Part shown: piece after piece, positions 10,705 to 52,533 of the stretch
Layout: every line of letters starts with the position of its first letter
How positions within the stretch are numbered: position 1 is the stretch's first letter
Source of the DNA: Acidobacteriota bacterium
Lineage (GTDB): Bacteria; Acidobacteriota; Vicinamibacteria; Vicinamibacterales; SCN-69-37
Length of the DNA: 60,218 nt
Direction: 5' to 3'
Assembly (NCBI GenBank): GCA_050264575.1
Contig: JBLNGH010000279.1
Location: forward strand, 1-60,218
Notes under the pieces: model-generated
Seen by the model: the letters and a program-made list of their open reading frames with translations, nothing else
Databases searched by the model: none
What the model was told of the DNA's origin: nothing
Made by a program: the position numbers and the translations under genes

Positions 10705-12636
10705 TCAGAAGGGATGCCCGATGCTGAAGTGGATTCGCCAGTGCCGCGTTTCGGGGGCACCGTTCACTTGAAGGCCGTCGATCGGCGTGAGCTGGATGCC
10801 GAGATCGGCGCGCACGATGCCGACCGGTGACATCCACCGGATGCCTGGACCGGCATCGACGCGGATGCGGCCGGCGCCCAGCCCCTCCGGCGCGGCCCAG
10901 ACATTGCCGGCGTCGACGAAGAGTGCGGCGCCCAGTGAGCCGCGAATCGTCATCCGCCATTCGCTCGACGCTTCGAGCATGGCGCGGCCTCCCACGGGCA
11001 GCCCGTCGGTCGTGAGCGGCGCGACCTGGTAGCGACCCCACCCGCGGAGGCTCGTCGAACCTCCCAGGAAGTACCGTTCGGACACCGGCACCGGTGCCAG
11101 TGCATTGGCGAAGATCACGCCCGTGGCGACGCGCGTGGCCCACACCTGTCCGCGGCCGAGCGGCACATACAACCGCCCCTCGGTGCGGAACTCGTCGTAG
11201 CGATACGTCCCGCCGAGCCAAGGCGCCGCATGTTTGAGATAGATCTCGACCGAGGTACCGCGATGGGGATCCGACGCTCTGTCCACGGCGATGCGCTCGA
11301 GATTGAGGTCGATGCCGGCGAGACGGCCCTCGCCCTTGCCTGTCAGCGGATCCAGCCCGAGCGCGATCAGTTGCTCGAACTTGGTGAGATCTTCGAGCGT
11401 GGCCGGATCGACCTCGTATTTCAGGTACTCGTTCAGGTAGCTCACCCGCACGTTGTAATCGATGGGCTCGAAATCGACGCCTCGCTCGGATGCGCGTTTG
11501 TAGGTGATTCCCCACCGGCCGCCGTACCGCTGCGCCGTGTACGTCGGTTCGTCGGTCAGCCACCCGCCGGCTCGCGCCGTGAGTGAAACGGTCGGCCTCA
11601 GGAAGTACGGCTCGACGAATTCGATGCCGGCGCCGCGCAGGCGCGACGAGTACTTCGCTTCAGCGGCGAATCGCCGCGCATCCCCGAGAAAATTGAAGTG
11701 ATCCCAACGGACGGATCCACGCGGACCGTCCTCAGTCCCATACCCGGCGCCGAACTGGAACCGCGTCGGCTGACTTTCGGCCATCGTCACCACCATTGGC
11801 ACCGTCGTAGCGGTGAGACTCGCCTCGGCGGCGGGATCGGCGCGCACGTGCGCGAACTGGAAGATGCCGAGCCGGCTCAGCCGGCGCTGGCTCTCGAGCA
11901 CCTGGCTTTCGCGGTACTGATCGCCCGGCGCGAATGCAAGCGTGCGCTTGACCAGCGTCTCGTGGACCGACACGAGCCCGACGACGGAGATGTCGCCGAA
12001 GGTCGCCGTTTCACCCGGCGTCGCGGCCATCGTCACGACGACGCGCTTCGGCTGCAGTCCGGGTGTCTCGTGGCTTTCGACGTGGGCATGCGGGTAGCCA
12101 CGATCGCGGAGGACGAACGTCACGCGCTCGCGGGTCGCCGCGACAAGTTGCCGATCCCGCGGCGCACCCGCTTTCTGCGGAAGATTGGTCAGCGCCGCCG
12201 TGACTTCCGGCGGCACACCCTCGAGTCCGGTGAACGCGAGACGCTCGACGACGAGCGGCGCGCCTTCGTTCAGATGAATGCGGAGACTGACCGCGTCGTG
12301 CTTGGCGTTGAAGGTGACGTCGGCGGCGGTGACTTGCGCGTCCGGGTACCCGCGATCGTCATAGAAGGCTTTCAGACGCTGCAGGTCGGTATCGAACACC
12401 TTGCGGCTGAAGAAGCGCGGGCGCGCCCACGGCAGCCAGCCCGTGGCCCGCGTCGCGACGACGTCCCTGAGCTGTTTGCCGCTGAAGACGTGATTGCCTT
12501 CGAAGTCGAGGCTCGACACACGGGCATCGCCCTCTTCGTGACAGGCGGAGCCGACGACCGCCGTCGTCAGGACGACAGCCGCCAGCCAGCCACGGGCCAG
12601 ACCGCCGGGTCGGTGGGTCATCGATAGCGCCGGCAA
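10705..12636 (-). CDS. tamA: Omp85/BamA-family outer membrane protein, TamA-like
   Basis: POTRA-type segments (LDFEGNHVFSGKQLRDVV, LQRLKAFYDDRGYPDAQV). The barrel ends ...RIHFSIGHPF with a terminal aromatic residue. It is paired with tamB. The start is either the TTG at 12636 or the ATG at 12621. Confidence 0.85.
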   Translation of the reverse strand: MPALSMTHRPGGLARGWLAAVVLTTAVVGSACHEEGDARVSSLDFEGNHVFSGKQLRDVVATRATGWLPWARPRFFSRKVFDTDLQRLKAFYDDRGYPDAQVTAADVTFNAKHDAVSLRIHLNEGAPLVVERLAFTGLEGVPPEVTAALTNLPQKAGAPRDRQLVAATRERVTFVLRDRGYPHAHVESHETPGLQPKRVVVTMAATPGETATFGDISVVGLVSVHETLVKRTLAFAPGDQYRESQVLESQRRLSRLGIFQFAHVRADPAAEASLTATTVPMVVTMAESQPTRFQFGAGYGTEDGPRGSVRWDHFNFLGDARRFAAEAKYSSRLRGAGIEFVEPYFLRPTVSLTARAGGWLTDEPTYTAQRYGGRWGITYKRASERGVDFEPIDYNVRVSYLNEYLKYEVDPATLEDLTKFEQLIALGLDPLTGKGEGRLAGIDLNLERIAVDRASDPHRGTSVEIYLKHAAPWLGGTYRYDEFRTEGRLYVPLGRGQVWATRVATGVIFANALAPVPVSERYFLGGSTSLRGWGRYQVAPLTTDGLPVGGRAMLEASSEWRMTIRGSLGAALFVDAGNVWAAPEGLGAGRIRVDAGPGIRWMSPVGIVRADLGIQLTPIDGLQVNGAPETRHWRIHFSIGHPF

Positions 12637-14886: not shown

Positions 14887-14896
14887 CGGCTCCGCC

Positions 14897-14934
14897 GAAC
14901 TTCAGACTTCGAACTTCAGACTTCGAACTTCGAA
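14897..14934. repeat. Tandem 14-mer gaacttcagacttc x2 plus gaacttcgaa (TTCGAA word family)
   Basis: Read directly from the sequence. It fills the convergent gap between the hydrolase stop (14886) and rluB, and it encodes the last codons of rluB (..SKFEV*). Confidence 0.9.
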
Positions 14935-15698: not shown

Positions 15699-15729
15699 TC
15701 ACCACATCACCACATCACGACGTCACAAC
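15699..15729. repeat. Low-complexity word repeat tcaccacatcaccacatcacgacgtcacaac (CACCACAT family)
   Basis: It fills the 42-nt rluB/scpB spacer. Its reverse complement shares the 15-mer gtgatgtggtgatgt with 25652-25666. Confidence 0.9.
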
Positions 15730-16345: not shown

Positions 16346-17137
16346 CTACTCACTGAATGTCGGGGCATCGGCCGGCCGCGCGCGGCGGTAGACGCGAATC
16401 GGACCGAAGTTGCCCTGCTGGAACACGCGCACGAGTTTGAGTCGAATCATCTCCAGAAGCGCCAGAAAGGTCACGATCATTCCGGCGCGGGTCTGGACGT
16501 CGGCAAACAGCTCCTCGAAGCCGCACGCCTCGGTTTCGGACAATCGCGCCAGAAGCTGCTCGATGCGCCGCTCGAGCGGGATCTGCTCGGCCGGCAACGG
16601 CACGACCGGCCGCTGGCGCATGCGATCCATCACCTGACGGAAGGCGGCCATCAGGCTGAACAGATCGACTTCGATCTCGGGCTCGGGCGGATCGCCGACG
16701 AGCTCGGCGACGCGGCCGTCCGGGCGGCCCCACTGGGCGCTTCGCTGGATCTCTTTCTCGTGGAGCAGCTCGGCCGCGGCCTTGAACCGCTGGTGCTCGA
16801 GCAGCCGCCGGACCAGCGCCTCGCGCGGGTCCTCTTCCGGATCTTCCTGCGTCGGGTCGGGCCGCGGGAGGAGCATCCGCGACTTGATGTGGATGAGCGT
16901 CGCCGCCATCACCAGGAACTCGCCGGCGACGTCCAGATTCAGGTCCTGCATCAGCTCGAGGTACTCGAGGTACTGCTGCGTGACCAGCGCGATCGGAATG
17001 TCGTAGATGTTGACCTCGTTCTTCTTGATGAGGTGCAACAACAGGTCGAGCGGCCCCTCGAAGTTCTGAAGGCGGACCGGATATTCCTCGAGCAGCGACT
17101 CGAATTCGGATTCCTGCGGCGGTTCGGTCATCGTCAA
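16346..17137 (-). CDS. scpA: Segregation and condensation protein A
   Basis: NFEGPLDLLLHLIKKNEVNIYDIPIALVTQQYLEYL...AGEFLVMAATLIHIKSRMLLP. Confidence 0.9.
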   Translation of the reverse strand: MTMTEPPQESEFESLLEEYPVRLQNFEGPLDLLLHLIKKNEVNIYDIPIALVTQQYLEYLELMQDLNLDVAGEFLVMAATLIHIKSRMLLPRPDPTQEDPEEDPREALVRRLLEHQRFKAAAELLHEKEIQRSAQWGRPDGRVAELVGDPPEPEIEVDLFSLMAAFRQVMDRMRQRPVVPLPAEQIPLERRIEQLLARLSETEACGFEELFADVQTRAGMIVTFLALLEMIRLKLVRVFQQGNFGPIRVYRRARPADAPTFSE

Positions 17138-18132
17138 TATCGCAAGTGGACGGCGGTCCGGACGCGGTCCATTGTCTCCCCGGCGACGGTGCGCGCGCGG
17201 CGCGATCCGTCGATCAGCACGTCACGAAGGTAGCCGGGCCGGGCCAGCGCCGCCCGCCGGCGCTCGCGCATCGGTTCGAGCACGGCGTTGATGGCCGCGG
17301 CGAGCTTGGTTTTGACTTCCACGTCGCCCACTTTCCCGTTCCGATAGCGCGCCTTGAGGTCGTCCACCTCGGCGCGGTTGCCGTTGAACGCATCATGGTA
17401 AACAAAGACGGGGTTGCCTTCGATGGTTCCGGGGATGTCGGCCCGCACGCGCTTGGGGTCGGTGTACATCTGCCGGACTTTCCGGGTCACCGTCTCGGCA
17501 TCGTCCGACAGATCGATCGTGTTGCCGTAGCTCTTGCTCATTTTGCGGTTGTCGAGGCCCGGCAGCCGCGGCGTCGGCGTGAGCAGCGGCTGCGGCTCGA
17601 CGAAGATCTCGCCATAGAAATTGTGAAACCGGCGCACCACTTCGCGGGACAGCTCGAGGTGCGCGACCTGATCTTCCCCGACCGGGACGAAGTGCGCGTT
17701 GTAGATGACCACGTCGGCGGTCTGCAGCAGGGGGTAGCCCAGAAAGCCGAGATTCGACAGATCTTTTTCGGCCAGCTGCTCGATCTGCTCCTTATAGGTG
17801 GGCACGCGCTCCAGCCAGGGAATGGGCGTGACCATCTGGAGCAGCAAATACAGCTCCGCATGCTCCGGGATGAGCGACTGGACGAACAGCGTGCTCTTCT
17901 CCGGATCGATGCCTGCGGCAATCCAGTCCGCGACGTTGTCGAGCGCATTCTCGACGATGCCCTCGGTGGCGGCGTATTCACTCGTCAAGGCATGCCAGTC
18001 GGCGACGAAGTAGAAGCAGTCGTACTCGCGCTGGAGGTCGACCCAGTTCTGCAGCGCGCCGACGAGATGGCCGAGGTGGAGGCGCCCCGTGGGACGCATC
18101 CCGGACACCACGCGCTTGCGCGTTACGCCCAC
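17134..18132 (-). CDS. trpS: Tryptophan--tRNA ligase
   Basis: HIGH-type motif GRLHLGH and KMSKS motif. I chose the GTG at 18132 (MGVTRKRVVSGMRPTG). It overlaps the upstream stop and gives a typical length of about 332 aa. The track start at 18222 would overlap the protease gene by 100 nt. Confidence 0.88.
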   Translation of the reverse strand: MGVTRKRVVSGMRPTGRLHLGHLVGALQNWVDLQREYDCFYFVADWHALTSEYAATEGIVENALDNVADWIAAGIDPEKSTLFVQSLIPEHAELYLLLQMVTPIPWLERVPTYKEQIEQLAEKDLSNLGFLGYPLLQTADVVIYNAHFVPVGEDQVAHLELSREVVRRFHNFYGEIFVEPQPLLTPTPRLPGLDNRKMSKSYGNTIDLSDDAETVTRKVRQMYTDPKRVRADIPGTIEGNPVFVYHDAFNGNRAEVDDLKARYRNGKVGDVEVKTKLAAAINAVLEPMRERRRAALARPGYLRDVLIDGSRRARTVAGETMDRVRTAVHLRY

Positions 18133-18770
18133 AGGAGCGCGTCCACGAACGCGTACACCGGCCGAATAATCAGGCTCAGCACGCCGGTGAAGAGCAGGAG
18201 ATACAGCAGCAAAAAGCCCCACGGCCGTAGCTGAACGAGCCGCGCCGCCAGCGGGGTCGGCAAGACGCCGATCGCCACGTTGCCGCCATCGAGGGGCGGA
18301 ATCGGAATCATGTTGAACACGGCGAGCAGGACGTTCGTCACGATGGCGGTCTCGAGGATGTTGCCGACGCGTCCGATCGTGAACGGCGTCGCGCCGCCCG
18401 GATAGATCAGGAAAAAAACGATCGAGAAGCCGGTCGCGAGCACGAGATTGCTGATCGGGCCGGCCGCCGCGACGATGGCGAAGTCGCGCCGGGGCGCGCG
18501 CAGATTCCGCATGTCCACCGGCACCGGCTTCGCCCAGCCGATGAGCGGCGCGCCGGTGGTCATCGCAATCAGCGGGAACAGGACAGTGCCGATCCAGTCG
18601 ATATGCGCCAGTGGATTGAGCGTCAAGCGACCTTGGTTGCGCGCCGTGGGATCGCCGAGACGATAGGCGGACCAGGCGTGCGCCGCCTCATGAAAGGACA
18701 GCGACAAGATCAGGATGACGAGCAGCGGAATCAGGACGTCGAGCGGCGGCAAGCGGTCAAACTGTACCAT
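18123..18770 (-). CDS. Site-2 protease family (M50) membrane metalloprotease
   Basis: HExxH motif (SFHEAAHAW), a polytopic profile, and NMIPIPPLDGG. Confidence 0.85.
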   Translation of the reverse strand: MVQFDRLPPLDVLIPLLVILILSLSFHEAAHAWSAYRLGDPTARNQGRLTLNPLAHIDWIGTVLFPLIAMTTGAPLIGWAKPVPVDMRNLRAPRRDFAIVAAAGPISNLVLATGFSIVFFLIYPGGATPFTIGRVGNILETAIVTNVLLAVFNMIPIPPLDGGNVAIGVLPTPLAARLVQLRPWGFLLLYLLLFTGVLSLIIRPVYAFVDALLWA

Positions 18771-18776
18771 CTAAAC

Positions 18777-18838
18777 TGGAATCTGAAATCTGGAATCTGC
18801 AATCTGATCGGGGAATCGGGCAATCGGGGAATCTGGAA
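18777..18838. repeat. Direct low-complexity repeat of AATC(T/G)G(G) words, about 8 units
   Basis: tggaatctgaaatctggaatctgcaatctgatcggggaatcgggcaatcggggaatctggaa fills the uvrC/protease spacer. Confidence 0.9.
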
Positions 18839-18842
18839 ACCC

Positions 18843-20774
18843 TTACGCGCCGCCGAAATGTTTGATGACGGCGTCCGCCGTTTTCGCCCCGACCGCGGCT
18901 TCGAGCTCCTGACGGCTCGCGCGCCGGACGCCGGCCACTGATCCGAACGTGGTCAGGAGCTGCTTGCGTCGCCGCGCGCCGATGCCGGGGACATCGTCGA
19001 GCGCCGACCGGAGATCGCGCCTGGTGCGGGAGCGGCGGTGGAACGTGATGGCGAACCGGTGCGCCTCGTCGCGAATCCGCTGGATCAATCGAAGCGCGCT
19101 CGACGCCCGCGGCAGCGCCAACCCCTCGACGCGATCGCGTGTGAAGAGCAGTTCTTCCTGTTTCGCGATGCCGACAGCCACGAGCCGATCGAGACCGACT
19201 TCACGCAGCGCCGCGTAAGCCGCCGTCAGCTGTCCCTTCCCGCCGTCGATCAGAATCAGGTCGGGGAAGGGGCCGCCGTGCTCGAGCAGCCGGCGGTATC
19301 GGCGAAAGACGACTTCATGAATGGCCGCGAAGTCGTCGGGAATCGATCTATCGATCGATCGCTCTATCGATCTATTTAAGGGCATCGTGTCAGCGTTCGG
19401 GAGCCGGACCTGCTTTTCGACAGGATGATCTTCACCAGATCGATAGATCGATGGATCGATAGATCGATTCAATCCTCTGATCTTGAATTTCCGATACTCG
19501 CCTTTCTTCATCCGGCCTTCGACGGCGACGACCATCGACCCGACCGTCTCGCTGCCCTGAAGGGTCGAGATGTCAAAGCATTCGATGCGCCTCGGGAGCG
19601 AGGGCAGCGCCAGCACCTCGCGGAGCTGATCGAGCGCTTCGAACGCGGTGCCCTCGCCTTCCGCGAAGTGCGACTGGTAAGCCAGCGACGCGTTTCTCGA
19701 CGCGAGCGACAGCAGACCCCGCTTGTCGCCGCGGCGCGGGACCTGGATCCGCACGCGCCGGCGCGCGCGCGCGCTGAGCCAGCTCTCGATCGCGTCCCGG
19801 TCCTCCGGCGGCAGCTCGGACGGCAGATGCACTTCGGGGGGAGGCTCGCGGTCCGCGTAGAACTGCTGTACCGCCGCCGTCAGCACATCGGTCTCCGAGG
19901 AGGCGGTGTCGCGGTCGGTCAGGAGCTCGCACCGGTCTACCACCCGGCCCCGACGGACCTGAAAAATCGTCGCGATGGCCCCTGCCGAGCCGACCTTGAC
20001 GCCAAAAGCGTCGCGATCGCCCATCGCCGGCGTCTCGACGGTGTTCCGGCGGTCGCGGACGGTCTCGATCGTGCGGATGGCGTCACGGAGATGGGCGGCG
20101 CGCTCGAAGTGCTCCTCGCCGGCGGCCGCCGTCATCTCGCGCTGGAGGTTGCGGATGAGCTCGTCCTGGCGGCCCTCGATGAGCAGCCGCGCCTGCTCGA
20201 CCGCGTGGCCGTACCGCTCGATGCTGCAGATCGTCTCCACGCAGGGCGCCAGGCAGCGGTGGATGTCGTACTCGAGGCACGGACGATCGCGCCGGCCGTC
20301 GATGATCTCGTTGCACGACCGGATGCCGAAGAACCGGTGAGCCAGGCTCATCGTCCGGCGCGCGACCGCGGCCGGCATGAAGGGGCCCGCATAGACGTTC
20401 CCGTCCTTCTCGACCCGCCGGGCGACGAGCAGGCGCGGCGCCCGCTCCGTGGTCGTGAGCTGGAGATACGGATACGTCTTATCGTCGCGGAGCAGGACGT
20501 TGAAGCGCGGATTGCGCTGCTTGATCAGCCGGTTCTCGAGGGCGAGCGCCTCGACGACGGAGTCGGTGACGACGTACTCCAGCGACGCGGCGTCGCGCAG
20601 GAGCGCGTCGTGACGCGGGCTGATCCCCTTCGCGCCGAGGTACGACCGCACGCGATCGCGAAGCACGCGGGCCTTGCCGACGTACAAGGTCTCGCCGGTG
20701 TCGTTCAGGAAGAGATACACGCCCGGTTGCTGCGGCAATCGCGCGATGCGGGCCTTGAGATCGTCAATCGCCAT
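18843..20774 (-). CDS. uvrC: Excinuclease ABC subunit C
   Basis: GIY-YIG motif (PGVYLFLNDTGETLYVGKA), UVR domain, ECFDIS...LILIDGGKGQL, and a C-terminal (HhH)2. It carries a 43-aa in-frame insertion (next feature). Confidence 0.95.
   Translation of the reverse strand: MAIDDLKARIARLPQQPGVYLFLNDTGETLYVGKARVLRDRVRSYLGAKGISPRHDALLRDAASLEYVVTDSVVEALALENRLIKQRNPRFNVLLRDDKTYPYLQLTTTERAPRLLVARRVEKDGNVYAGPFMPAAVARRTMSLAHRFFGIRSCNEIIDGRRDRPCLEYDIHRCLAPCVETICSIERYGHAVEQARLLIEGRQDELIRNLQREMTAAAGEEHFERAAHLRDAIRTIETVRDRRNTVETPAMGDRDAFGVKVGSAGAIATIFQVRRGRVVDRCELLTDRDTASSETDVLTAAVQQFYADREPPPEVHLPSELPPEDRDAIESWLSARARRRVRIQVPRRGDKRGLLSLASRNASLAYQSHFAEGEGTAFEALDQLREVLALPSLPRRIECFDISTLQGSETVGSMVVAVEGRMKKGEYRKFKIRGLNRSIDPSIYRSGEDHPVEKQVRLPNADTMPLNRSIERSIDRSIPDDFAAIHEVVFRRYRRLLEHGGPFPDLILIDGGKGQLTAAYAALREVGLDRLVAVGIAKQEELLFTRDRVEGLALPRASSALRLIQRIRDEAHRFAITFHRRSRTRRDLRSALDDVPGIGARRRKQLLTTFGSVAGVRRASRQELEAAVGAKTADAVIKHFGGA
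19341..19469. repeat. 129-nt palindromic low-complexity (ATCGAT-word) element inserted in frame in uvrC
   Basis: The arms at 19341-19373 and 19437-19469 are 31/33 complementary (aatcgatctatcgatcGatcgCtctatcgatct). A 63-nt spacer separates them. The element encodes NRSIDPSIYRSGEDHPVEKQVRLPNADTMPLNRSIERSIDRSI, which lies between KIRGL and PDDFAAIHEV. Confidence 0.85.
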
Positions 20775-21603
20775 GGGCTACGATCCGGCCGGGTTTCCGG
20801 TTGGCCTTCCTCGGACTCCGACCCTCGTGACATTTACCGGCGCTGTCGGGAAAGCGTTCAATTTCCCGCTGCGACTGATCATCGCCGCGTGCGTCCGGCT
20901 CCGGATCCATCCAAATATTCTGACCTTCACCGGGGTCCTCATCAACATCTGGGCCGGCTGGCATCTGGCGCACGGCGAGTTCCACATCGCGTTCTGGATC
21001 ATGCTCGGCGCCAACGTCTTCGACTTCATCGACGGCAAGGTCGCGATGGAAACCGGCAAGATGTCGAAGTTCGGCGGTTTCTGGGATTCGGTGATCGATC
21101 GATTCTCCGACCTGGCGCTCTCGGTCGGACTCATCTGCCTCTACTCGTCGCTCGGGCGCACCGACTACGTGCTCATCACGTCGATCGCGATGGTCTTCGC
21201 GACGATGACGAGCTACACGCGCGCGCGGGCCGAATCGCTCATCCCGAAATGCAAGGTCGGCTTCATGGAGCGGCCGGAGCGCATCGTGCTCTTCATGATT
21301 GGCGCGGTCACCAACCGCATGGCCGCGGTCATGTGGGTCATCGGCGTCCTGTCGATCGTGACGGTGATCAACCGCATTCAGTACACGTATCTCGAGCTCA
21401 ACAACCGGCCGCAGCCGCGGCGGTCGGGGGTCATCGGCTTTTTCGTCCGCGCGTTCTACTGGACCGACGAACGCGCCACGCTGCCGTACGACCTCTGGGT
21501 CATCGCCATTCTCGCGTTCGTCTGGCTCACACCGCCCGACTGGCTCGGCGATCCCATGGCCGTCGGCCAACTCGGACTTTTCCAGTACCTGGCAGGGCGA
21601 TGA
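20773..21603 (+). CDS. CDP-alcohol phosphatidyltransferase family protein
   Basis: DFIDGKVAMETGKMSKFGGFWDSVIDRFSD (DG..A..8..G...D...D-type motif) and multiple TM segments. The ATG at 20773 overlaps the uvrC start; a downstream GTG (about 20827) is possible. Confidence 0.78.
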   Translation: MGYDPAGFPVGLPRTPTLVTFTGAVGKAFNFPLRLIIAACVRLRIHPNILTFTGVLINIWAGWHLAHGEFHIAFWIMLGANVFDFIDGKVAMETGKMSKFGGFWDSVIDRFSDLALSVGLICLYSSLGRTDYVLITSIAMVFATMTSYTRARAESLIPKCKVGFMERPERIVLFMIGAVTNRMAAVMWVIGVLSIVTVINRIQYTYLELNNRPQPRRSGVIGFFVRAFYWTDERATLPYDLWVIAILAFVWLTPPDWLGDPMAVGQLGLFQYLAGR

Positions 21604-22739
21604 CGACGCTGGCCGGTTCGCGGATCGGCCGGCGCCAGTGGCTCGCCGCCGCGACGCTGCCGGCCGCGAGCGCGATCCTGAGCGGGTGCGCCAGCCGCGC
21701 CGCGGGGGCGCGGCCGGCTGCCACCGCCGGGTGGCTGCCGGATCACAGACGATTCGCCCGCGTCCGGGTCAGCCCCGACCGGGTCATTCGGACCGTCGTC
21801 GGGCTGCGGCCGTTCCGGCGTGCCGGATTCCGGGTCGCCGTCGACAAGATCGACGACAAGGTCGTCGTCCACAACTACGGGCACGGCGGAGGCGGAGTGA
21901 CCCTCTCGTGGGGCACCGCCGATCTGGCAGCCGAACTGGCGCTTCAATCGGGCCTGCGCCGCTTCGCGGTCATCGGGTGCGGCGCCGTCGGGCTCGCAAC
22001 GGCGCGGCTTCTGCAGCAGCGCGGCTGCCGCGTCACGATCTACGCGAAAGACCTGCCTCCGAACACGACGTCGAACGTCTCCGGCGCCCAGTGGGGGCCG
22101 TTTTCCGTCGTCGACCGCGACCGTCGCACGCCGGAGTTCATGACCCAGTTCGTGCGCGCGAGCCGGTTTTCCTATCGCTACTTCCAGAATCTCGTCGGCG
22201 AGCGGTACGGCGTCAAGTGGATCGAGAACTACGTCCTCTCTGACGAGCCGTCCGCGCCGGCGCCGCAACCCGAAGTGGAAGGCCTGCTGCCGGAGTCACG
22301 CGAACTGCGCCCAGGCGAGCATCCGTTTCCAGCGCGGTACGTGCGAATGTTTGCTTCGATGTTCGTCGAGCCGCCCGTCTATCTCCCGGCGCTCGAGGAA
22401 GACGTCCGGCACGCCGGCGCCGGGATCGACGTCCGTGAAATCCGCGATCGCACCGAGCTGGCCAGCCTGGCGGAACCGGGCGTCATCAATTGCACGGGCC
22501 TCGGCGCGCGAGCGCTCTTCAACGACGAGGAGATGCTGCCGATCAAAGGGCAGCTGCACGTGCTGTTGCCGCAGTCCGAAGTGGATTACCTGGTCCTGGC
22601 GCCCGACCTCTACATGTTTCCGCGGCGCGACGGCATCCTCCTCGGCGGGACGTTCGAGCGCGGCGAGTGGTCACTCGAGCCCAACCACGACGCCGAGAAG
22701 CGCATTCTCGAGGGGCACAGCCGGATCTTTGCTTCTTAA
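21600..22739 (+). CDS. D-amino-acid-oxidase-like FAD oxidoreductase with a Tat signal, a lipobox and apparently permuted segment order
   Basis: RIGRRQWL twin-Arg motif and LSGC lipobox. VVHNYGHGGGGVTLSWGTA precedes the Rossmann motif FAVIGCGAVGLATARLL. An ATGA overlap links it to the upstream gene. Confidence 0.8.
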   Translation: MTTLAGSRIGRRQWLAAATLPAASAILSGCASRAAGARPAATAGWLPDHRRFARVRVSPDRVIRTVVGLRPFRRAGFRVAVDKIDDKVVVHNYGHGGGGVTLSWGTADLAAELALQSGLRRFAVIGCGAVGLATARLLQQRGCRVTIYAKDLPPNTTSNVSGAQWGPFSVVDRDRRTPEFMTQFVRASRFSYRYFQNLVGERYGVKWIENYVLSDEPSAPAPQPEVEGLLPESRELRPGEHPFPARYVRMFASMFVEPPVYLPALEEDVRHAGAGIDVREIRDRTELASLAEPGVINCTGLGARALFNDEEMLPIKGQLHVLLPQSEVDYLVLAPDLYMFPRRDGILLGGTFERGEWSLEPNHDAEKRILEGHSRIFAS

Positions 22740-22757
22740 GTTCGAAGTTCGAACTTA
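22737..22757. terminator. 21-nt near-perfect palindrome taagttcgaaGttcgaactta between convergent genes (TTCGAA word family)
   Basis: It equals its own reverse complement except at the central base. It starts at the oxidase stop codon and ends 8 nt before the tdk stop. Confidence 0.6.
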
Positions 22758-22764
22758 GGCTGTC

Positions 22765-23331
22765 TTACCCCTGACCGAGGCTTGGATCGAAACAGTGCCG
22801 GCAGCGCGCTTCGTACGTGCCGGACGCGCCGACGAGTACGCGCTCTTTCGAGGCCACGAGGCGCTGGGTATGGTTGGCCGGACCGCCGCAGACCATGCAG
22901 ATCGCGAGCGTCTTCGTGATGTACTCGGCCGTCGCCAGCAGCTGGGGCATCGGCTCGAACGGCTTGCCGAGGTAGTCCTGATCGAGTCCGGCCACGATGA
23001 CGCGCTTGCCCTGTCGCGCCAGTTCGGCGCACACGGCCGGGAGCTCGGCATCGAAGAATTGCCCCTCGTCGATCCCGACCACTTCGGTGTCCGCGCGGAC
23101 GCGTTCCGCCAGCTGCCGTGAATTGCCGACGCTCTCCGACGGAATCTTCATCTCGCTGTGCGAGACGATTTCGGCGCTGCTGTAGCGATCGTCGATCGCC
23201 GGCTTGAAGATCTGCACCCGCTGCCGCGCAATCTGCGCGCGCCGCAGCCGGCGGATGAGCTCTTCGCTCTTGCCGCTGAACATGCTCCCGGTGATGACTT
23301 CGATCCAGCCGGATTTGGGGGACTGTTCCAT
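22765..23331 (-). CDS. tdk: Thymidine kinase
   Basis: P-loop [11 protein letters not shown] and a C-terminal zinc ribbon (CMVCG...CRHC). Confidence 0.95.
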
Positions 23332-23333
23332 AG

Positions 23334-23440
23334 CAAACTTAGAACTCAGAACTTAGAACTCAGAACTTGAACTTCGAACCCGACAGGTGAACATCGTCGG
23401 GTTATTAGTTCTGAGTTCAGAGTTCTGAGTTCTAAGTTTG
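23334..23440. repeat. Compound inverted repeat: 34-36-nt AACT(C/T)AGA-word arms around an inner GC hairpin
   Basis: The left arm caaacttagaactcagaacttagaactcagaact pairs with the reverse complement of the right arm (32/34 match). The inner stem is acccgac/gtcgggt (23378-23402). The element lies between the efp stop and the tdk start. Confidence 0.85.
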
Positions 23441-23452
23441 TTCCCGTACTCA

Positions 23453-25643: not shown

Positions 25644-25754
25644 GTGAAATTGTGATGTGGTGATGTCGTGATGTGTGATTTGAGACCATCATGGCCCGTC
25701 CGAGGACAAGCGTTTTGAAATCACCAATCACCAATCACCAGATCACAAATTCAC
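25644..25754. repeat. Long imperfect inverted repeat of GTGATG-type words (40-nt arms, 31-nt spacer)
   Basis: The left arm is gtgaaattgtgatgtggtgatgtcgtgatgtgtgatttga. The reverse complement of the right arm is gtgaatttgtgatctggtgattggtgattggtgatttcaa. The element fills the convergent htrA/mpg gap and overlaps the last mpg codons. Confidence 0.85.
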
Positions 25755-38282: not shown

Positions 38283-38460
38283 TCGAACGCACGCGAGTTG
38301 ACGGAGCGCCGGCTGCACGGCGTCTCCGACCTCGGCGTGTTGGGGAACTCGCCGAGCCGCTGCGAACTCTTCGAGCACCGCGCTCCTCCTCGCGGGGTGT
38401 TCGTCCGGGCCGTTCGCGGCAACCCGGGTCGGCCGCGCCCGTCAACTCGCGTGCGTTCGA
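38283..38460. repeat. Perfect 22-bp inverted repeat (tcgaacgcacgcgagttgacgg / ccgtcaactcgcgtgcgttcga) bracketing 134 nt
   Basis: The arms at 38283-38304 and 38439-38460 are exact reverse complements. The right arm encodes the last codons of the nucleoside permease. Confidence 0.9.
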
Positions 38461-48994: not shown

Positions 48995-49004
48995 GAACCT
49001 GTCA

Positions 49005-49141
49005 GGGCAAAGGGCAGAGCGTAAAGGGCAAAGGGAGGGTAAGAGGGTAGAGGTAACGAGGAGAGTTTCTGCGATCGACACAGGACCTCTGCCCTTTCAC
49101 CTTTGACCTCTCCTCTGCCCTTTGCCCTCTGCCCTTTGCCC
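49005..49141. repeat. Long imperfect inverted repeat of GGGCAAAGGGCAGAG-type words (50-57-nt arms, 30-nt spacer)
   Basis: The left arm is gggcaaagggcagagcgtaaagggcaaaggg.... The reverse complement of the right arm is gggcaaagggcagagggcaaagggcagagg.... The element fills the whole convergent gap between the permease and the M14 gene. Confidence 0.85.
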
Positions 49142-52100
49142 TTACTTCGCGTCCAGCTTCCTCCCCGCGTTCAGATTGTCGAAGTTCAGCACCGTGTTGA
49201 ACACGAGGAAATAGCTGCCGATCGTCTCGCCGCGCCAGATGGGATTGTTCGCGAAGAGCACGACGTGCCCCTTCTCCACCGGGACGTCGACCGCGACGGG
49301 ACGCTGCGCGATATCGCCGCCGCCCTGCAGCAGCCCGGACACCAGCAGCTCGTTCTGGTCCGCGAAGCGCAGCGCGACGCGAGGCCGGAACTCGGGCGGG
49401 ATGATGTTGAGCGGATTTCGCAATTGCTCCTCATTCGGAAGCGTGTACTGCCACGGCCGCGCCGCCGGCGGACGCGTGGTCAGCTCGTTGCGCGGATCGA
49501 GCACCGGTCGTCCCTGAACGACGTCGGGATCATCCGGCGTGCCGCGGCCGGTCGCGCGGCTGGCGGCGCCGCCGCCCCGGCCTCCCCCGCCACCGCCGCC
49601 GCCCCCGCCACCGCCACCGCCACCGCCACCGGCGCCGATGTTCACGCTGAAGCTCGACCCGTTGTCGCTGTACATCGCGAGGCTGTCGCCGATGCCGTAG
49701 ACGATCGGACTCGCATCGTCGACGAGCTTCGTGCGCAGGAGCGAGCCAACCACGCGCGAGCCCGTCCCCGCATTGTTCGTCGTCACGCCGTGGGTCAGCC
49801 CGTATTGCACCGCGAAATTCGCGCTGCTGCCGGCGCCGATGAACACGCCGCCCTGCCTGACGAAGTCATCGAGATGCTTGAGACCGTCCCAGCCGAGCCC
49901 CGGCCGGATGTCATCGGTCTGCGCCCAGTCGCCGATGTTGGGCGTGTCGGGTGAGTTCTTCCAGGGCATCGGATTGCGGAACATCGGCATCCCCTCGATC
50001 ACCTGGAGCCCTCCGCCGCCGCCCGGCGCGAAGATGATCACGTCGTACTTCGCGCGCAGATTCGGCTCGCGCGCCACATCCTGCGTGCTGATGTACGAGA
50101 ACGGCATGCGCAGGGTGTCAAAGGCATAGCGCCACCAGCCTTCGGTCTGCGTTCCCTGCCACGTGTGCATGAGCGCGACGCGCGCGGCGCGCGCCGGATG
50201 CGTCTTCACGGACGGCGCCGCAGACAGCGCATAGGCCTTGAGACCGATTTCCGTCGTGGCTTTGTTCAAGTCGGCGGCGCTGACCTTGCTGATCAGGAAC
50301 GACCCACGGTTGAACTTCGTGCCCTGCGCCTCGAACGGCTCCTCGGCGACCTGAAAATCCGCATCCTTCAATTGATACCGCAGCGTCACCAGCGCGTTGT
50401 CCGCATTGTGATTCACGGCGAACAGCGTTGCGCCGCCGCCATTCACGGCGTTCGCCGGCATCACACCGCCCGGCGCGGCGACGGGACCCTTCACGGCTTC
50501 CATCGCAACGTCGAGCACTTTCGGATCGAGAACGCGGTATGCCTGGACCTGGAACCCCTCGGGGACCGTCCAGCCGGTATCGTCGTACGGGTTCTGCTGC
50601 GGATCGTTCGGCGCCCAGTACTGATAGTCGAGCAGCGCATCGGCGATGCGCGAGTACGGCTGATCCATGCGGACAATGTAGGTGCCGGCGGGAAACTGCC
50701 GGGTCTCGAAGGGCGGTGCGGCCGGCGGCGCGTCTTCCGCCCCGGCGCCGGCTCCGGCGCCGCCTGCGCCCTGTGCCGCGCCACCACCTGCCGCGCCACC
50801 ACCACTTGCCGCGCCACCACCACCTGGCGCGCCTCCTCCGGCGGCGCCCCCGCCTCGACCACCGCGGCCGGCGCCGGCCGCCCGGCGAACGGGAACCTGT
50901 GCGGAGAACTCAGCCGTCGCGCGCGAGATCTCGACGCGCTGTTTCTGCAGCACGCGCAAGAGCTCCGCTTGCGCGCCCAACCGGGGATCGTTGGCCGGCA
51001 GGATGTAGGCGGACGGGCCTTCGGTCTTCGCCTTCAGAATCGATCGCTTGCTCTTCTCGTAGAAATTCCGCAGGAACAGCAGACGGTTGTTGGCAAAGTG
51101 ATTCAGCGAGATCAGGAGTCCCGTCTGCTCGTAATTGTTGTTGTTGCGCAGCGACCACATGACGCGCGGCAGCGGCGGATTCTGACGGTACCAGGTGCGC
51201 GATGTCTGGTTCGGCTGGAGCGTTCGCTCCTGCGTGTCGGCGCTGCCGCTGTTGCCGAACGTCTCGTACAGCCGGCTGATGCCGTTGTGCGTCGCCGCGA
51301 CGAACATCAGGTAGCCCGGCGACCAGGTGTCGAACGTTCCGAACGCGAAGACCCCCGGCATCCCCATTCGCGTCATCTCGTTGACGTTGTTCCAGCCGAT
51401 GAGGTGCCACTCGTTCGTGAGGATCGGATCGAGCCAGGCGTTGTACGGTCCGTCGCCGATCGTGTTGTCGTACAGGTACGGCACCGATTCGTGCAGATCG
51501 TGGAGCACCTGCGCCTTCCAGTCGACGAACGCGTTCATGACGTTCTCGGTGAGCTTCAACGTCACGCCCATCGCGTCGCGGTTGTTGTCGTGCGCGACGT
51601 ACTTGCCCCAGTAGATCGGACCCGGCACGGTGCGGTCGGGGTACTTCTTGCGGTAGTTGTAGAGATCGACGACGCGATCGCGTCCGTCCGTCTCGACGAT
51701 GGGCGTGATCAGCGTGATGAGGTTCTCGCGGATGTTCCGCACGTACGGACTGTCGTCGACGGCCAGCCGGTACGCGAGCTCCATGAGCGCCGTCGGCGCG
51801 CCGGCTTCGGGCGCGTGAATCGTCCCGGTGATGTAGTACACGGGCGCGGCGCGCTTCGCGATCTCGTCCGCCAGCGCATCGTTCATGCTCATCGTCCGCG
51901 GGTCGGCCAGCTTCGCGAGATCGGCTTTGTTCTGATCGAGCCTGGCCATCAGGGCTTCGGACGCGACCGCGACCGCGATCATCTCGCGCCCTTCTTCCGA
52001 TTTCCCGATCGAGTAGACCTTGACGCGCGGCGTGGATTTCGCCAGCAGCCGCATGTACTCGTTCACCTCTTTGGTGTACGGCAGCTTGCCGGGCGCCCCG

Positions 52101-52387
52101 GCGATGTCACCGAGGACGGCCTTCGGCGTCGGCACGGTCTTCGACGCGGGCAGGTAGTCGACGAGCGGCGACAGGAAGAACGTCTCGGTCGTGTACTCCT
52201 TTATCTTCTTGGTGTACTCCTCGTCGATGGGTTGATTGGGATCGCGTCCGGCCCGCGCCGTGGCCAGATCGACGGCCGACGAGGACTTGGCCGGAGGCCG
52301 GGATTGATCGGCCAGCAGAATGACGGGCGCCACCGCACATGCGGCGCAGAGACCGAGAAGAAGACGACGGACCACGGAAAGGCTCAT
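49142..52387 (-). CDS. Exported M14-family (carboxypeptidase-like) protein, 1081 aa, with Gly-rich inserts
   Basis: The ATG at 52387 gives the signal MSLSVVRRLLLGLCAACAVAPVILLA. The M14-like segment is YYITGTIHAPEAGAPTALMELAY...ITPIVETDGRD. It has a run of 17 consecutive Gly residues ([23 protein letters not shown]) and a GA-rich insert. Confidence 0.8.
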   Translation of the reverse strand: MSLSVVRRLLLGLCAACAVAPVILLADQSRPPAKSSSAVDLATARAGRDPNQPIDEEYTKKIKEYTTETFFLSPLVDYLPASKTVPTPKAVLGDIAGAPGKLPYTKEVNEYMRLLAKSTPRVKVYSIGKSEEGREMIAVAVASEALMARLDQNKADLAKLADPRTMSMNDALADEIAKRAAPVYYITGTIHAPEAGAPTALMELAYRLAVDDSPYVRNIRENLITLITPIVETDGRDRVVDLYNYRKKYPDRTVPGPIYWGKYVAHDNNRDAMGVTLKLTENVMNAFVDWKAQVLHDLHESVPYLYDNTIGDGPYNAWLDPILTNEWHLIGWNNVNEMTRMGMPGVFAFGTFDTWSPGYLMFVAATHNGISRLYETFGNSGSADTQERTLQPNQTSRTWYRQNPPLPRVMWSLRNNNNYEQTGLLISLNHFANNRLLFLRNFYEKSKRSILKAKTEGPSAYILPANDPRLGAQAELLRVLQKQRVEISRATAEFSAQVPVRRAAGAGRGGRGGGAAGGGAPGGGGAASGGGAAGGGAAQGAGGAGAGAGAEDAPPAAPPFETRQFPAGTYIVRMDQPYSRIADALLDYQYWAPNDPQQNPYDDTGWTVPEGFQVQAYRVLDPKVLDVAMEAVKGPVAAPGGVMPANAVNGGGATLFAVNHNADNALVTLRYQLKDADFQVAEEPFEAQGTKFNRGSFLISKVSAADLNKATTEIGLKAYALSAAPSVKTHPARAARVALMHTWQGTQTEGWWRYAFDTLRMPFSYISTQDVAREPNLRAKYDVIIFAPGGGGGLQVIEGMPMFRNPMPWKNSPDTPNIGDWAQTDDIRPGLGWDGLKHLDDFVRQGGVFIGAGSSANFAVQYGLTHGVTTNNAGTGSRVVGSLLRTKLVDDASPIVYGIGDSLAMYSDNGSSFSVNIGAGGGGGGGGGGGGGGGGGRGGGAASRATGRGTPDDPDVVQGRPVLDPRNELTTRPPAARPWQYTLPNEEQLRNPLNIIPPEFRPRVALRFADQNELLVSGLLQGGGDIAQRPVAVDVPVEKGHVVLFANNPIWRGETIGSYFLVFNTVLNFDNLNAGRKLDAK

Positions 52388-52427
52388 TGAGCGACCTCGC
52401 ACCGCGCAATTGTAAGCAATAAGCGAG

Positions 52428-52533
52428 ACAAGAGCCGAGAAGTACGCTGGGCAAGGGCCGGGAAGTACGCTGGACAAGAGCGGAGAAGTACTGGAACTCG
52501 CGCGTGGAGTACGCCGTCAAAAACCGCGAGTAC
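52428..52533. promoter_or_regulatory. Three 23-nt tandem repeats plus two further half-sites: five (A/G)AGTAC motifs phased at 23, 23, 21 and 21 nt in a divergent promoter region
   Basis: The repeats are acaagagccgagaagtacgctgg, gcaagggccgggaagtacgctgg and acaagagcggagaagtactgga. AGTAC occurs at 52441, 52464, 52487, 52508 and 52529. Confidence 0.5.

Follow-up and report, generated by a model that had tools for sequence, protein, structure and literature searches.

A foldback tandem repeat within the coding sequence of uvrC in a Vicinamibacterales bacterium

Repetitive extragenic palindromic (REP) sequences, REP doublets forming hairpins (REPINs) and bacterial interspersed mosaic elements (BIMEs) are inverted pairs whose long hairpins lie between cistrons; they are known to stabilise mRNA and to contribute to the differential expression of operons. 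The foldback (FB) transposons of Drosophila have long inverted arms of short tandem repeats. Quasipalindrome correction by template switching, together with slipped-strand mispairing, is known from the Ripley model and from studies in E. coli. Rickettsia palindromic elements (RPEs) belong to dispersed families whose consensus and encoded peptide are conserved, and they occupy in-frame positions within housekeeping genes (Ogata et al. 2000, as summarised in PMC10969869). Heptameric repeats have the word GGGAATC in Xanthomonas and GGGGA(C/T)T in Nostoc, the latter among the short tandemly repeated repetitive (STRR) sequences (Rehm et al. 2015, PMC4692102). Their arrays are mostly intergenic near gene ends, 7–11% overlapping open reading frames (ORFs), and vary in length and sequence between close relatives at conserved positions; in Xanthomonas 70–75 convergent array pairs form inverted repeats (PMC4692102). 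The subject of this report is a 129-nt palindromic insert in the uvrC gene of an Acidobacteriota bacterium of the order Vicinamibacterales, carried by a 60,218-nt stretch of DNA (assembly GCA_050264575.1, contig JBLNGH010000279.1, positions 1–60,218), the whole of which is termed the window.

The explanation that we prefer, with a probability of about 0.5, is that the insert belongs, as a translated foldback tandem repeat, to the class occupying the spacers of this lineage and is housed in a permissive loop of UvrC; its peptide would be a passenger, its hairpin would be maintained and its origin would be local. A previous interpretation of the window (the sequence-only reading) had likened the insert to RPEs and seen in it an element that landed, or arose, in an essential repair gene.

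The insert in uvrC and the constraint on its arms

Homologs of the uvrC product are named excinuclease ABC subunit C and contain the Pfam domains GIY-YIG, UVR, UvrC_RNaseH and HHH_5; the named matches derive from Vicinamibacterales and other Acidobacteriota metagenome-assembled genomes (MAGs). The protein is collinear with canonical UvrC except for 43 residues (NRSIDPSIYRSGEDHPVEKQVRLPNADTMPLNRSIERSIDRSI) between YRKFKIRGL and PDDFAAIHEV. The sequence-only reading had delimited this in-frame, low-complexity palindrome, and its coordinates (19341–19469) and the complementarity of its two 33-nt arms (31/33) proved exact. It had also put the canonical length of the site at about four residues, in agreement with about 70 outgroup genomes from many phyla in which the YR(K/R)F.I strand is followed by 3–5 residues and then (D/N)DF, as in TVEGVDDF; the outgroup set comes from a contig scan with over-general patterns and consists mostly of distant phyla.

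Each arm comprises about four units of the 8-nt word ATCGATCT / AGATCGAT, with unit variants and a 4-nt sub-period. Both arms encode the same peptide word, as had been noticed earlier, because the repeat word is nearly self-complementary. With mismatches, pairing reaches 52 nt per arm (19340–19391 and 19419–19470; 85% complementary) with 27 nt between. Folding of the insert, a check that the sequence-only reading had proposed, gave −67.4 kcal/mol (z −7.2) for RNA and −39.8 kcal/mol (z −6.7) for DNA, and none of 200 dinucleotide shuffles folded as well. The GC content of the insert is 0.46–0.52, compared with about 0.70 in the rest of uvrC. The sole open frame of the insert is that of uvrC, the other sense frames containing two and four stops and the antisense frames one, two and one; a shuffled insert stays open in about 10% of trials.

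The insert is shared by a clade, named here after the motif ATCGAT, that consists of the window and seven of the loci fetched for comparison (L009 and L094–L099; fetched loci are numbered L and orthologous proteins P). Its members are 83–98% identical overall and 90–97% identical outside the insert; the uvrC frame is open in 8/8 members with DNA sequence, and their hairpins fold at −60 to −77 kcal/mol. The same 43-residue insert occurs in 10 further proteins (95–98% identity) from independent JGI and ENA assemblies, and is therefore not an assembly artefact. The sequence-only reading had stated that it would fail if the 43 residues were conserved in distant orthologs without a palindrome. No conservation of the peptide was found in distant orthologs, and where the insert is conserved, in the clade with 83–98% identity, the palindromic DNA is retained.

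The DNA-level survey of the insert covered 20 Vicinamibacterales-like loci. Evidence for maintenance of the hairpin comes from the divergence of its parts. Outside the insert, codon positions 1, 2 and 3 differ by 6.7%, 4.5% and 38.9% between the window and L096 (47% at 4-fold sites), and by 2.3%, 1.5% and 20% between the window and L009 (25% at 4-fold sites). The arms, whose alignments are gap-free in both pairs, differ at 6 of 76 positions from L096, two at each codon position, and at 5 of 76 from L009 (one, two and two at positions 1, 2 and 3). For L096 the arms thus differ by 8% against 39–47% at synonymous sites; with p = 0.39, the binomial probability that no more than six of 76 positions would differ is about 8e-10. 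Among the third positions of the 40 codons flanking the insert on either side, 13/34 and 19/40 differ between the window and L096, which is the gene-wide rate; a recombination tract is therefore rejected as the cause of arm conservation. The core, by contrast with the arms, has diverged to a near-neutral extent, by 13% from L009, 47% from L096 and 43–62% from clade members farther away.

RNAalifold of the eight clade members yielded a 32-pair consensus stem in which 88% of cells are paired. Both sides have changed in six stem pairs, compared with 2.1 ± 1.1 in shuffles (0/500 reach six), and slid controls all score below the consensus stem. An example of compensatory change is the replacement of ATCGATC/GATCGAT by ATCGGGC/GCCCGAT in L099. 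As the arms change slowly and evenly by codon position while the core changes freely and compensatory changes are in excess, the constraint appears to act on nucleotides and pairing, rather than on the peptide.

The window UvrC matches the C-terminal halves of two solved structures, PDB 2nrt (T. maritima) and 3c65 (Bacillus), and the structure search splits these matches around the insert, which has no counterpart in them. In the AlphaFold model, residues 436–478 have a predicted local distance difference test score (pLDDT) below 50, between the YRKFKI strand (residues 428–433, pLDDT about 86–92) and the confidently predicted DDF helix (residues 481–499). The low pLDDT between a confident strand and helix, together with the absence of a counterpart in solved structures, leads us to predict that the insert extends a surface loop of the UvrC RNase H-like domain as a disordered excursion. 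Both borders contain invariant residues, Y427, R428, K429 and F430 in the strand and D480 and D481 at the helix. The E. coli equivalent, D438, is reportedly needed for 5′ incision (Verhoeven et al. 2000).

An intron, an intein or a known structured RNA was rejected as the identity of the insert, given the lack of an Rfam family match and the open frame in all orthologs. The only Rfam matches were chance-level ones to plant microRNA hairpins, at 27 bits where the threshold is 150, and a search of the insert for an intrinsic terminator or promoter yielded nothing above chance. A 1104-aa antisense ORF (19425–22739, plus strand) has its ATG inside the insert, crosses uvrC and continues beyond it; this shadow ORF of GC-rich sequence is almost certainly spurious.

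The loop across orthologs and sibling elements

In 120 orthologs (68–100% identity) the loop is 5–59 residues long (median 32), is at least 10 residues long in 114, and has 107 distinct peptides. The L010 loop contains a hairpin of GGCACTC words (z −3.9), that of L101 a hairpin of GGCCCAA words (z −4.4), and the loops of L001 and L002 keep a remnant. On a neighbour-joining tree insert types are mostly clade-specific, with abrupt exceptions. Outside the loop P0036 (GGCACTC) shares 96% identity with P0040/P0041 (GGCCCAA), yet their words are unrelated; the loop is empty in P0070/P0095 and has about 26–35 extra residues in P0050/P0081, at 96–97% identity between the two pairs; and P0024/P0031, with remnants, are 97–98% identical to P0023/P0025, with full inserts. 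Differences of this kind among orthologs that are 96–98% identical indicate that the loop undergoes change in unit number, near-complete deletion and wholesale replacement. The uvrC loop is a hotspot across Vicinamibacterales, and a single landing event does not account for it, as throughout the lineage the same loop is either empty or filled by decayed remnants, direct arrays or words that are unrelated. A palindrome test at the peptide level, which detects near-perfect palindromes only, was passed by 14/79 inserts and failed by that of the window, and when other protein families that might host such arrays were sought with the idealised peptide (GTRHSAL)n of the heptamer, three tiny hypothetical proteins matched.

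Longer UvrC loops, of 11–28 residues, also occur in some Terriglobia-type genomes (L026, L030, L033 and L043). They lack low-complexity words, and there is no significant hairpin signal in three of them and a weak one in L030 (z −2.6); the UvrC loop may be generally permissive. In L007, positions 750–838 form a near-perfect palindrome (93%) with 44-nt arms, a 1-nt spacer and non-repetitive sequence.

Several patterns around uvrC point to a local origin of the arrays. In L010 and L014 the loop word also builds an intergenic array directly after the uvrC stop, about 0.5 kb downstream. The L010 array (11950–12060, about 100 nt, GGCACTC) begins at the native C-terminal uvrC codons ATT CGG CAC T, which contain CGGCACT, and the stop codon falls inside the first GGCACTC unit; the 96%-identical L101 (2060–2200), unlike L010, has no array after uvrC. 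It looks as if the L010 array grew from a seed in coding sequence. Across loci the spacer after uvrC contains five different words, or none, and is itself a site of turnover. L009 has a complete hairpin of 230 nt in this spacer (11930–12160; −86 kcal/mol, z −5.2), of which the window (18776–18833) has no more than the 3′ half, so that an arm has been gained or lost between very close (96%-identical) genomes. The syntenic spacer about 900 nt upstream of uvrC likewise carries AATGACAC, AATGAGGC or CATTGCCT foldback or tandem elements in three genomes (Table 1), a probable case of word turnover at a fixed position. These patterns are consistent with a mechanism in which slippage would extend arrays from seeds nearby and short-range copying, direct or inverted, would follow.

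Elsewhere in the window are three sibling foldback elements, inverted arrays of 7-nt words around unique cores, whose architecture, as the sequence-only reading had recognised, is that of the insert. The four hairpins have this architecture in common but not their sequence. About nine arrays occur in the window; about eight are intergenic and the uvrC insert is the sole one within a coding region. The uvrC word has 13 matches in the window, all inside 19342–19468 (0.5 expected), and it was not found outside uvrC inserts in the 102 fetched loci. No other copy of the element was found in the search of the window and about 250 kb of related DNA, which falls short of a complete genome. The intergenic hairpins carry stops in nearly every frame and therefore could not survive inside a gene. 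Words with G-tracts are confined in the window to 49001–49053 (AGGGCAA) and 18807–18833 (GGGGAATC).

The sibling at 23334–23440 and its ortholog in L009 share 95% identity, against a 25% difference at 4-fold sites between the window and L009. This 107-nt hairpin (region 23329–23452) begins 12 nt past the stop of the upstream gene and ends 2 nt before the apparent ATG (23329–23331, minus strand) of the downstream minus-strand gene, a position in which its stem would bury the translation start region. Two further repeats lie in the window. A perfect 22-nt inverted repeat (TCGAACGCACGCGAGTTGACGG; 38283–38304 and 38439–38460, 134 nt apart) brackets a spacer between convergent genes and is probably a different kind of element, being GC-rich and not low-complexity. 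A 23-nt unit (GACAAGAGCCGAGAAGTACGCTG) is repeated 2.8 times at 52427–52491, near the 5′ end of a long minus-strand ORF (49142–52516).

The gene order of the region (16346–20774) is shared with L094–L102 and comprises a divergent CDP-alcohol phosphatidyltransferase gene, uvrC, and genes for an M50-like peptidase, a class Ib tRNA synthetase, ScpA and ScpB. The synthetase (Pfam tRNA-synt_1b), downstream of uvrC, is taken to be TrpS. The genes from uvrC to ScpB are co-directional with very short gaps, and the uvrC hairpin is therefore probably within an operon transcript.

Table 1. Positions of the uvrC insert, its parts and related arrays (window coordinates unless a locus is named).
Feature	Position	Strand	Location	Details
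uvrC (excinuclease ABC subunit C)	18843–20774	minus		643-aa ORF, host gene of the insert
In-frame insert	19341–19469	minus	uvrC	129 nt, 43 codons, residues N436–I478; putative translated foldback tandem repeat
5′ arm (uvrC sense)	19437–19469	minus	uvrC insert	AATCGATCT ATCGATCC ATCGATCT ATCGATCT; encodes NRSIDPSIYRS; identical in L009
Core	19374–19436	minus	uvrC insert	63 nt, non-repetitive; outer parts pair, leaving 27-nt loop 19392–19418
3′ arm (uvrC sense)	19341–19373	minus	uvrC insert	AGATCGAT AGAGCGAT CGATCGAT AGATCGATT; encodes NRSIERSIDRSI
Codons for YRKFKIRGL	19470–19496	minus	uvrC	β-strand of RNase H-like domain bordering the loop
Codons for PDDFAAIHEV	19311–19340	minus	uvrC	start of helix bearing the invariant DD motif
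Foldback element	23334–23440		intergenic	word AACTTAG/AACTCAG; arms 34 nt, 94% complementary; −62.6 kcal/mol, z −9.2
Foldback element	25644–25754		between convergent genes	word GTGATGT/AATCACC; −48.5 kcal/mol, z −5.8
Foldback element	49001–49145		between convergent genes	word AGGGCAA/CCTTTGC; −87.6 kcal/mol, z −8.1
Direct array	14896–14934		intergenic	word CGAACTT/CAGACTT; same class, not inverted
Direct array	15699–15726		intergenic	word TCACCACA
Direct array	22738–22753		intergenic	tandem word of the same kind
Arrays	18776–18833		intergenic, between uvrC stop and next gene	CTGGAAT/CTGAAAT 7-mers, GGGGAATC 8-mers
Upstream-spacer element, L004	9032–9168			related but different 8-nt words in the three loci
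Upstream-spacer element, L010	9044–9188			as above
Upstream-spacer element, L006	9053–9185			as above

Explanations for the insert

The preferred explanation would place the insert in a class of elements with two inverted arrays of a 7–8-nt word around a short unique core, which elsewhere in this Vicinamibacterales genome are intergenic. Its site would be a surface loop of the 5′-incision, RNase H-like domain, with the YRKFKI strand on one side and the DDF helix on the other, where the 43 extra residues would be a disordered, low-complexity passenger constrained merely to remain open and in frame. The hairpin would be kept as nucleic acid, its arms staying complementary and evolving about five times more slowly than synonymous sites as the core drifts. 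Such an element would not have arrived as a copy of a dispersed transposon but would have arisen, and been repeatedly renewed, locally: slipped-strand mispairing would build arrays from short seeds, template switching would make an inverted copy or copy a nearby array, and within the gene the survivors would be stop-free versions whose length is a multiple of three. The outcome would be a uvrC transcript with a 35–50-bp stem, or DNA with a cruciform-prone palindrome, as in the intergenic copies; our best guess is that the stem affects the processing, stability or translation of uvrC mRNA. A bolder proposal, possible but doubtful, is that the Vicinamibacterales hairpins are an undescribed class selected for structure and free in sequence, long stems of interchangeable tandem words that act on DNA or on the processing, stability or translation of RNA, with the uvrC loop as their conserved docking site across a large subclade and a protein that tolerates any encoded peptide. 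If true, a regulatory nucleic-acid element would be embedded in, and co-evolve with, the surface loop of an enzyme.

A number of observations weigh against maintenance of the hairpin and its local origin. The hairpin is dispensable, as loops are empty or short in L003, L005, L006, L007 and L102 and about one quarter of the ATCGAT-clade proteins have a remnant without the left arm. The loops of L014 (CCCGAGT) and L100 (GGGACATC) contain direct arrays without a hairpin, and those of L004 (GATTGAC, z −0.3) and L099 (z −1.6) contain decayed ones. G-U and A-C cells in the stem are equally frequent (about 10 versus 9), and with no such asymmetry sense RNA and DNA are not distinguishable as the selected molecule. 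When arms were swapped between species the average energy was −60 kcal/mol, compared with −67 for native pairs, which were not consistently better, in a test limited by the word common to all arms and by the dominance of arm length over energy. Low-complexity arms can be aligned in more than one register, and the identity of the more distant members may be inflated as a result; the mutation rate of AT-rich arms may also be lower than that of GC-rich 4-fold sites. Slippage and template switching, moreover, are inferred and not observed.

The main rival to the preferred explanation regards the insert as neutral junk: an insertion derived from a microsatellite that a permissive loop tolerates, with a hairpin that has no function and whose apparent upkeep reflects mutational self-templating, low mutability and alignment bias. 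Hypervariability of the loop, with presence or absence among 96–98% identical orthologs, is what this proposal would predict, as are the direct arrays and decayed hairpins at the same site, the many inserts of other clades that are just A/P/G-rich coil, the disorder of the insert peptide in the AlphaFold model and the negative chimeric-arm test. Neutrality is nevertheless unlikely in view of arms that are 5-fold less divergent than synonymous sites, with no low-divergence tract nearby, the excess of compensatory pairs and the intergenic sibling conserved at 95% compared with 75% at 4-fold sites; unbiased concerted evolution, furthermore, does not slow divergence between lineages. An RPE-like element or a miniature inverted-repeat transposable element (MITE) transposed in frame into uvrC is improbable. 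The palindrome with terminal inverted arms, in frame and predicted to be translated as are RPEs (PMC10969869), and the presence, absence and wholesale replacement among close relatives would suit such an element, but no sequence family exists in the window and the 102 loci, where the word is confined to uvrC inserts and the window hairpins share no sequence. In addition, its arms are tandem low-complexity arrays rather than unique terminal repeats, no target-site duplication was seen at the junctions by eye, and the many unrelated words in exactly one loop would require a shared site specificity among many unrelated elements.

The remaining rivals are more remote. A contingency switch, in which one unit of 8 or 4 nt is gained or lost, the frame is thereby shifted upstream of the catalytic residues and nucleotide excision repair is reversibly switched off, would draw on unit sizes (8, 7 and 4 nt) that are not multiples of three, on the position of the insert upstream of the DD motif and of the IDGG aspartate and histidine of the 5′-incision site, and on unit numbers that differ between more distant orthologs. 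A phase-variable contingency locus is expected to have a long perfect tract and frequent length change, whereas each arm here has about four imperfect, variant units in a short array and insert length is identical in 11/11 proteins at 95–100% identity, even though 4-fold sites differ by about 25%; this candidate was accordingly rejected. No frameshifted allele was seen, in searches that would under-sample such alleles, and the switch is very improbable. There is just as little probability in a functional protein loop, an extra peptide that modulates the activity or partners of UvrC: it would adjoin the invariant DD motif and be kept, at 10 residues or more, in 114/120 orthologs, but the 107 peptides have no conserved motif and the region is disordered, arm substitutions have no codon-position bias while the core changes freely, and close relatives have empty loops. 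The chance of an assembly or binning artefact is negligible. Palindromes and low-complexity repeats are prone to misassembly, yet the insert recurs in the 10 further JGI and ENA assemblies, and homologous inserts are present in eight loci at the DNA level with the frame kept in all.

If the preferred explanation is correct, the locus is a clear natural case of a coding segment constrained as nucleic acid and not as protein, given its lack of codon periodicity, the 5-fold conservation of its arms relative to synonymous sites and its compensatory changes. A loop of the UvrC incision domain that accepts from 0 to about 55 arbitrary residues would be useful for engineering and structural work. The turnover of words, the half and full hairpins and the array that starts in native codons offer material on the birth of repeats, whether through slippage and template switching or through transposition. 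Inserts of this kind widen the variation in protein length and can also mislead gene calling, alignment and tools that find repeats or CRISPR arrays in Acidobacteriota MAGs.

Comparison with known repeat systems

The hairpins in the window resemble REP, REPIN and BIME elements in being long intercistronic hairpins made by inverted pairs. REPs, however, are conserved 20–35-nt sequences with hundreds of extragenic copies and are tied to REP-associated tyrosine transposases (RAYTs), whereas the window hairpins have no conserved sequence among them and the uvrC copy is intragenic; a REP or REPIN identity was thus rejected. FB transposons of Drosophila differ in being kilobase-scale, eukaryotic and, in some copies, equipped with transposase genes, and no evidence of relatedness was found. 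Quasipalindrome correction with slippage would explain inverted copying, correction of one arm by the other and change in unit number without a transposase, but it is a mutational mechanism and not a family of elements, and here one that we infer rather than observe.

The likeness to RPEs that the sequence-only reading proposed survives in part. The insert is, like these elements, a palindrome of about 100–150 bp located in frame in a housekeeping gene where the fold tolerates it, and it is predicted to be translated; hairpin size and open in-frame insertion both agree. A dispersed family with a conserved peptide was not found in the window and the 102 loci, the word being restricted to uvrC inserts. 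In contrast to RPEs, copies of the uvrC type share no sequence, their arms are tandem 7–8-nt words, and one loop of one gene bears unrelated words in different lineages. For a MITE, no direct repeat was seen by eye at the junctions GGATTG/AATCGAT...ATCGATT/CCCGAC. The description of uvrC as essential holds as to its conservation and finds no support in this analysis as to essentiality itself. In-frame palindromic repeats would nonetheless be extended beyond Rickettsia.

The closest described class, in our comparison, appears to be the heptameric repeats of Xanthomonas and Nostoc. No report of heptanucleotide repeats in Acidobacteria emerged from a literature search. The arrays reported here share with that class tandem words, a mostly intergenic position near gene ends with an intragenic minority, a GC-rich genome, convergent inverted pairs and variation between close relatives. 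The window words AGGGCAA and GGGGAATC resemble the quadruplex-prone GGGAATC of Xanthomonas (PMC4692102), and the unit is 7 nt in the window siblings and in the uvrC inserts of L010, L014 and L101, compared with 8 nt in the uvrC copy of the window. The two systems differ in that Xanthomonas and Nostoc have one dominant, G-rich and quadruplex-prone word, while in Vicinamibacterales many unrelated words coexist and no single G-rich word dominates. The uvrC copy departs further from the class: its word is near-self-complementary and not G-rich, ATCGATCT having no G-tracts, and it lies wholly inside an enzyme domain, where it is conserved as a hairpin with measurable nucleotide-level constraint. 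An in-frame hotspot in a conserved protein, as seen in uvrC, is not reported in PMC4692102. Hairpins of heptamer-type repeats would thereby be extended beyond Xanthomonas and cyanobacteria to dominant, poorly studied soil bacteria.

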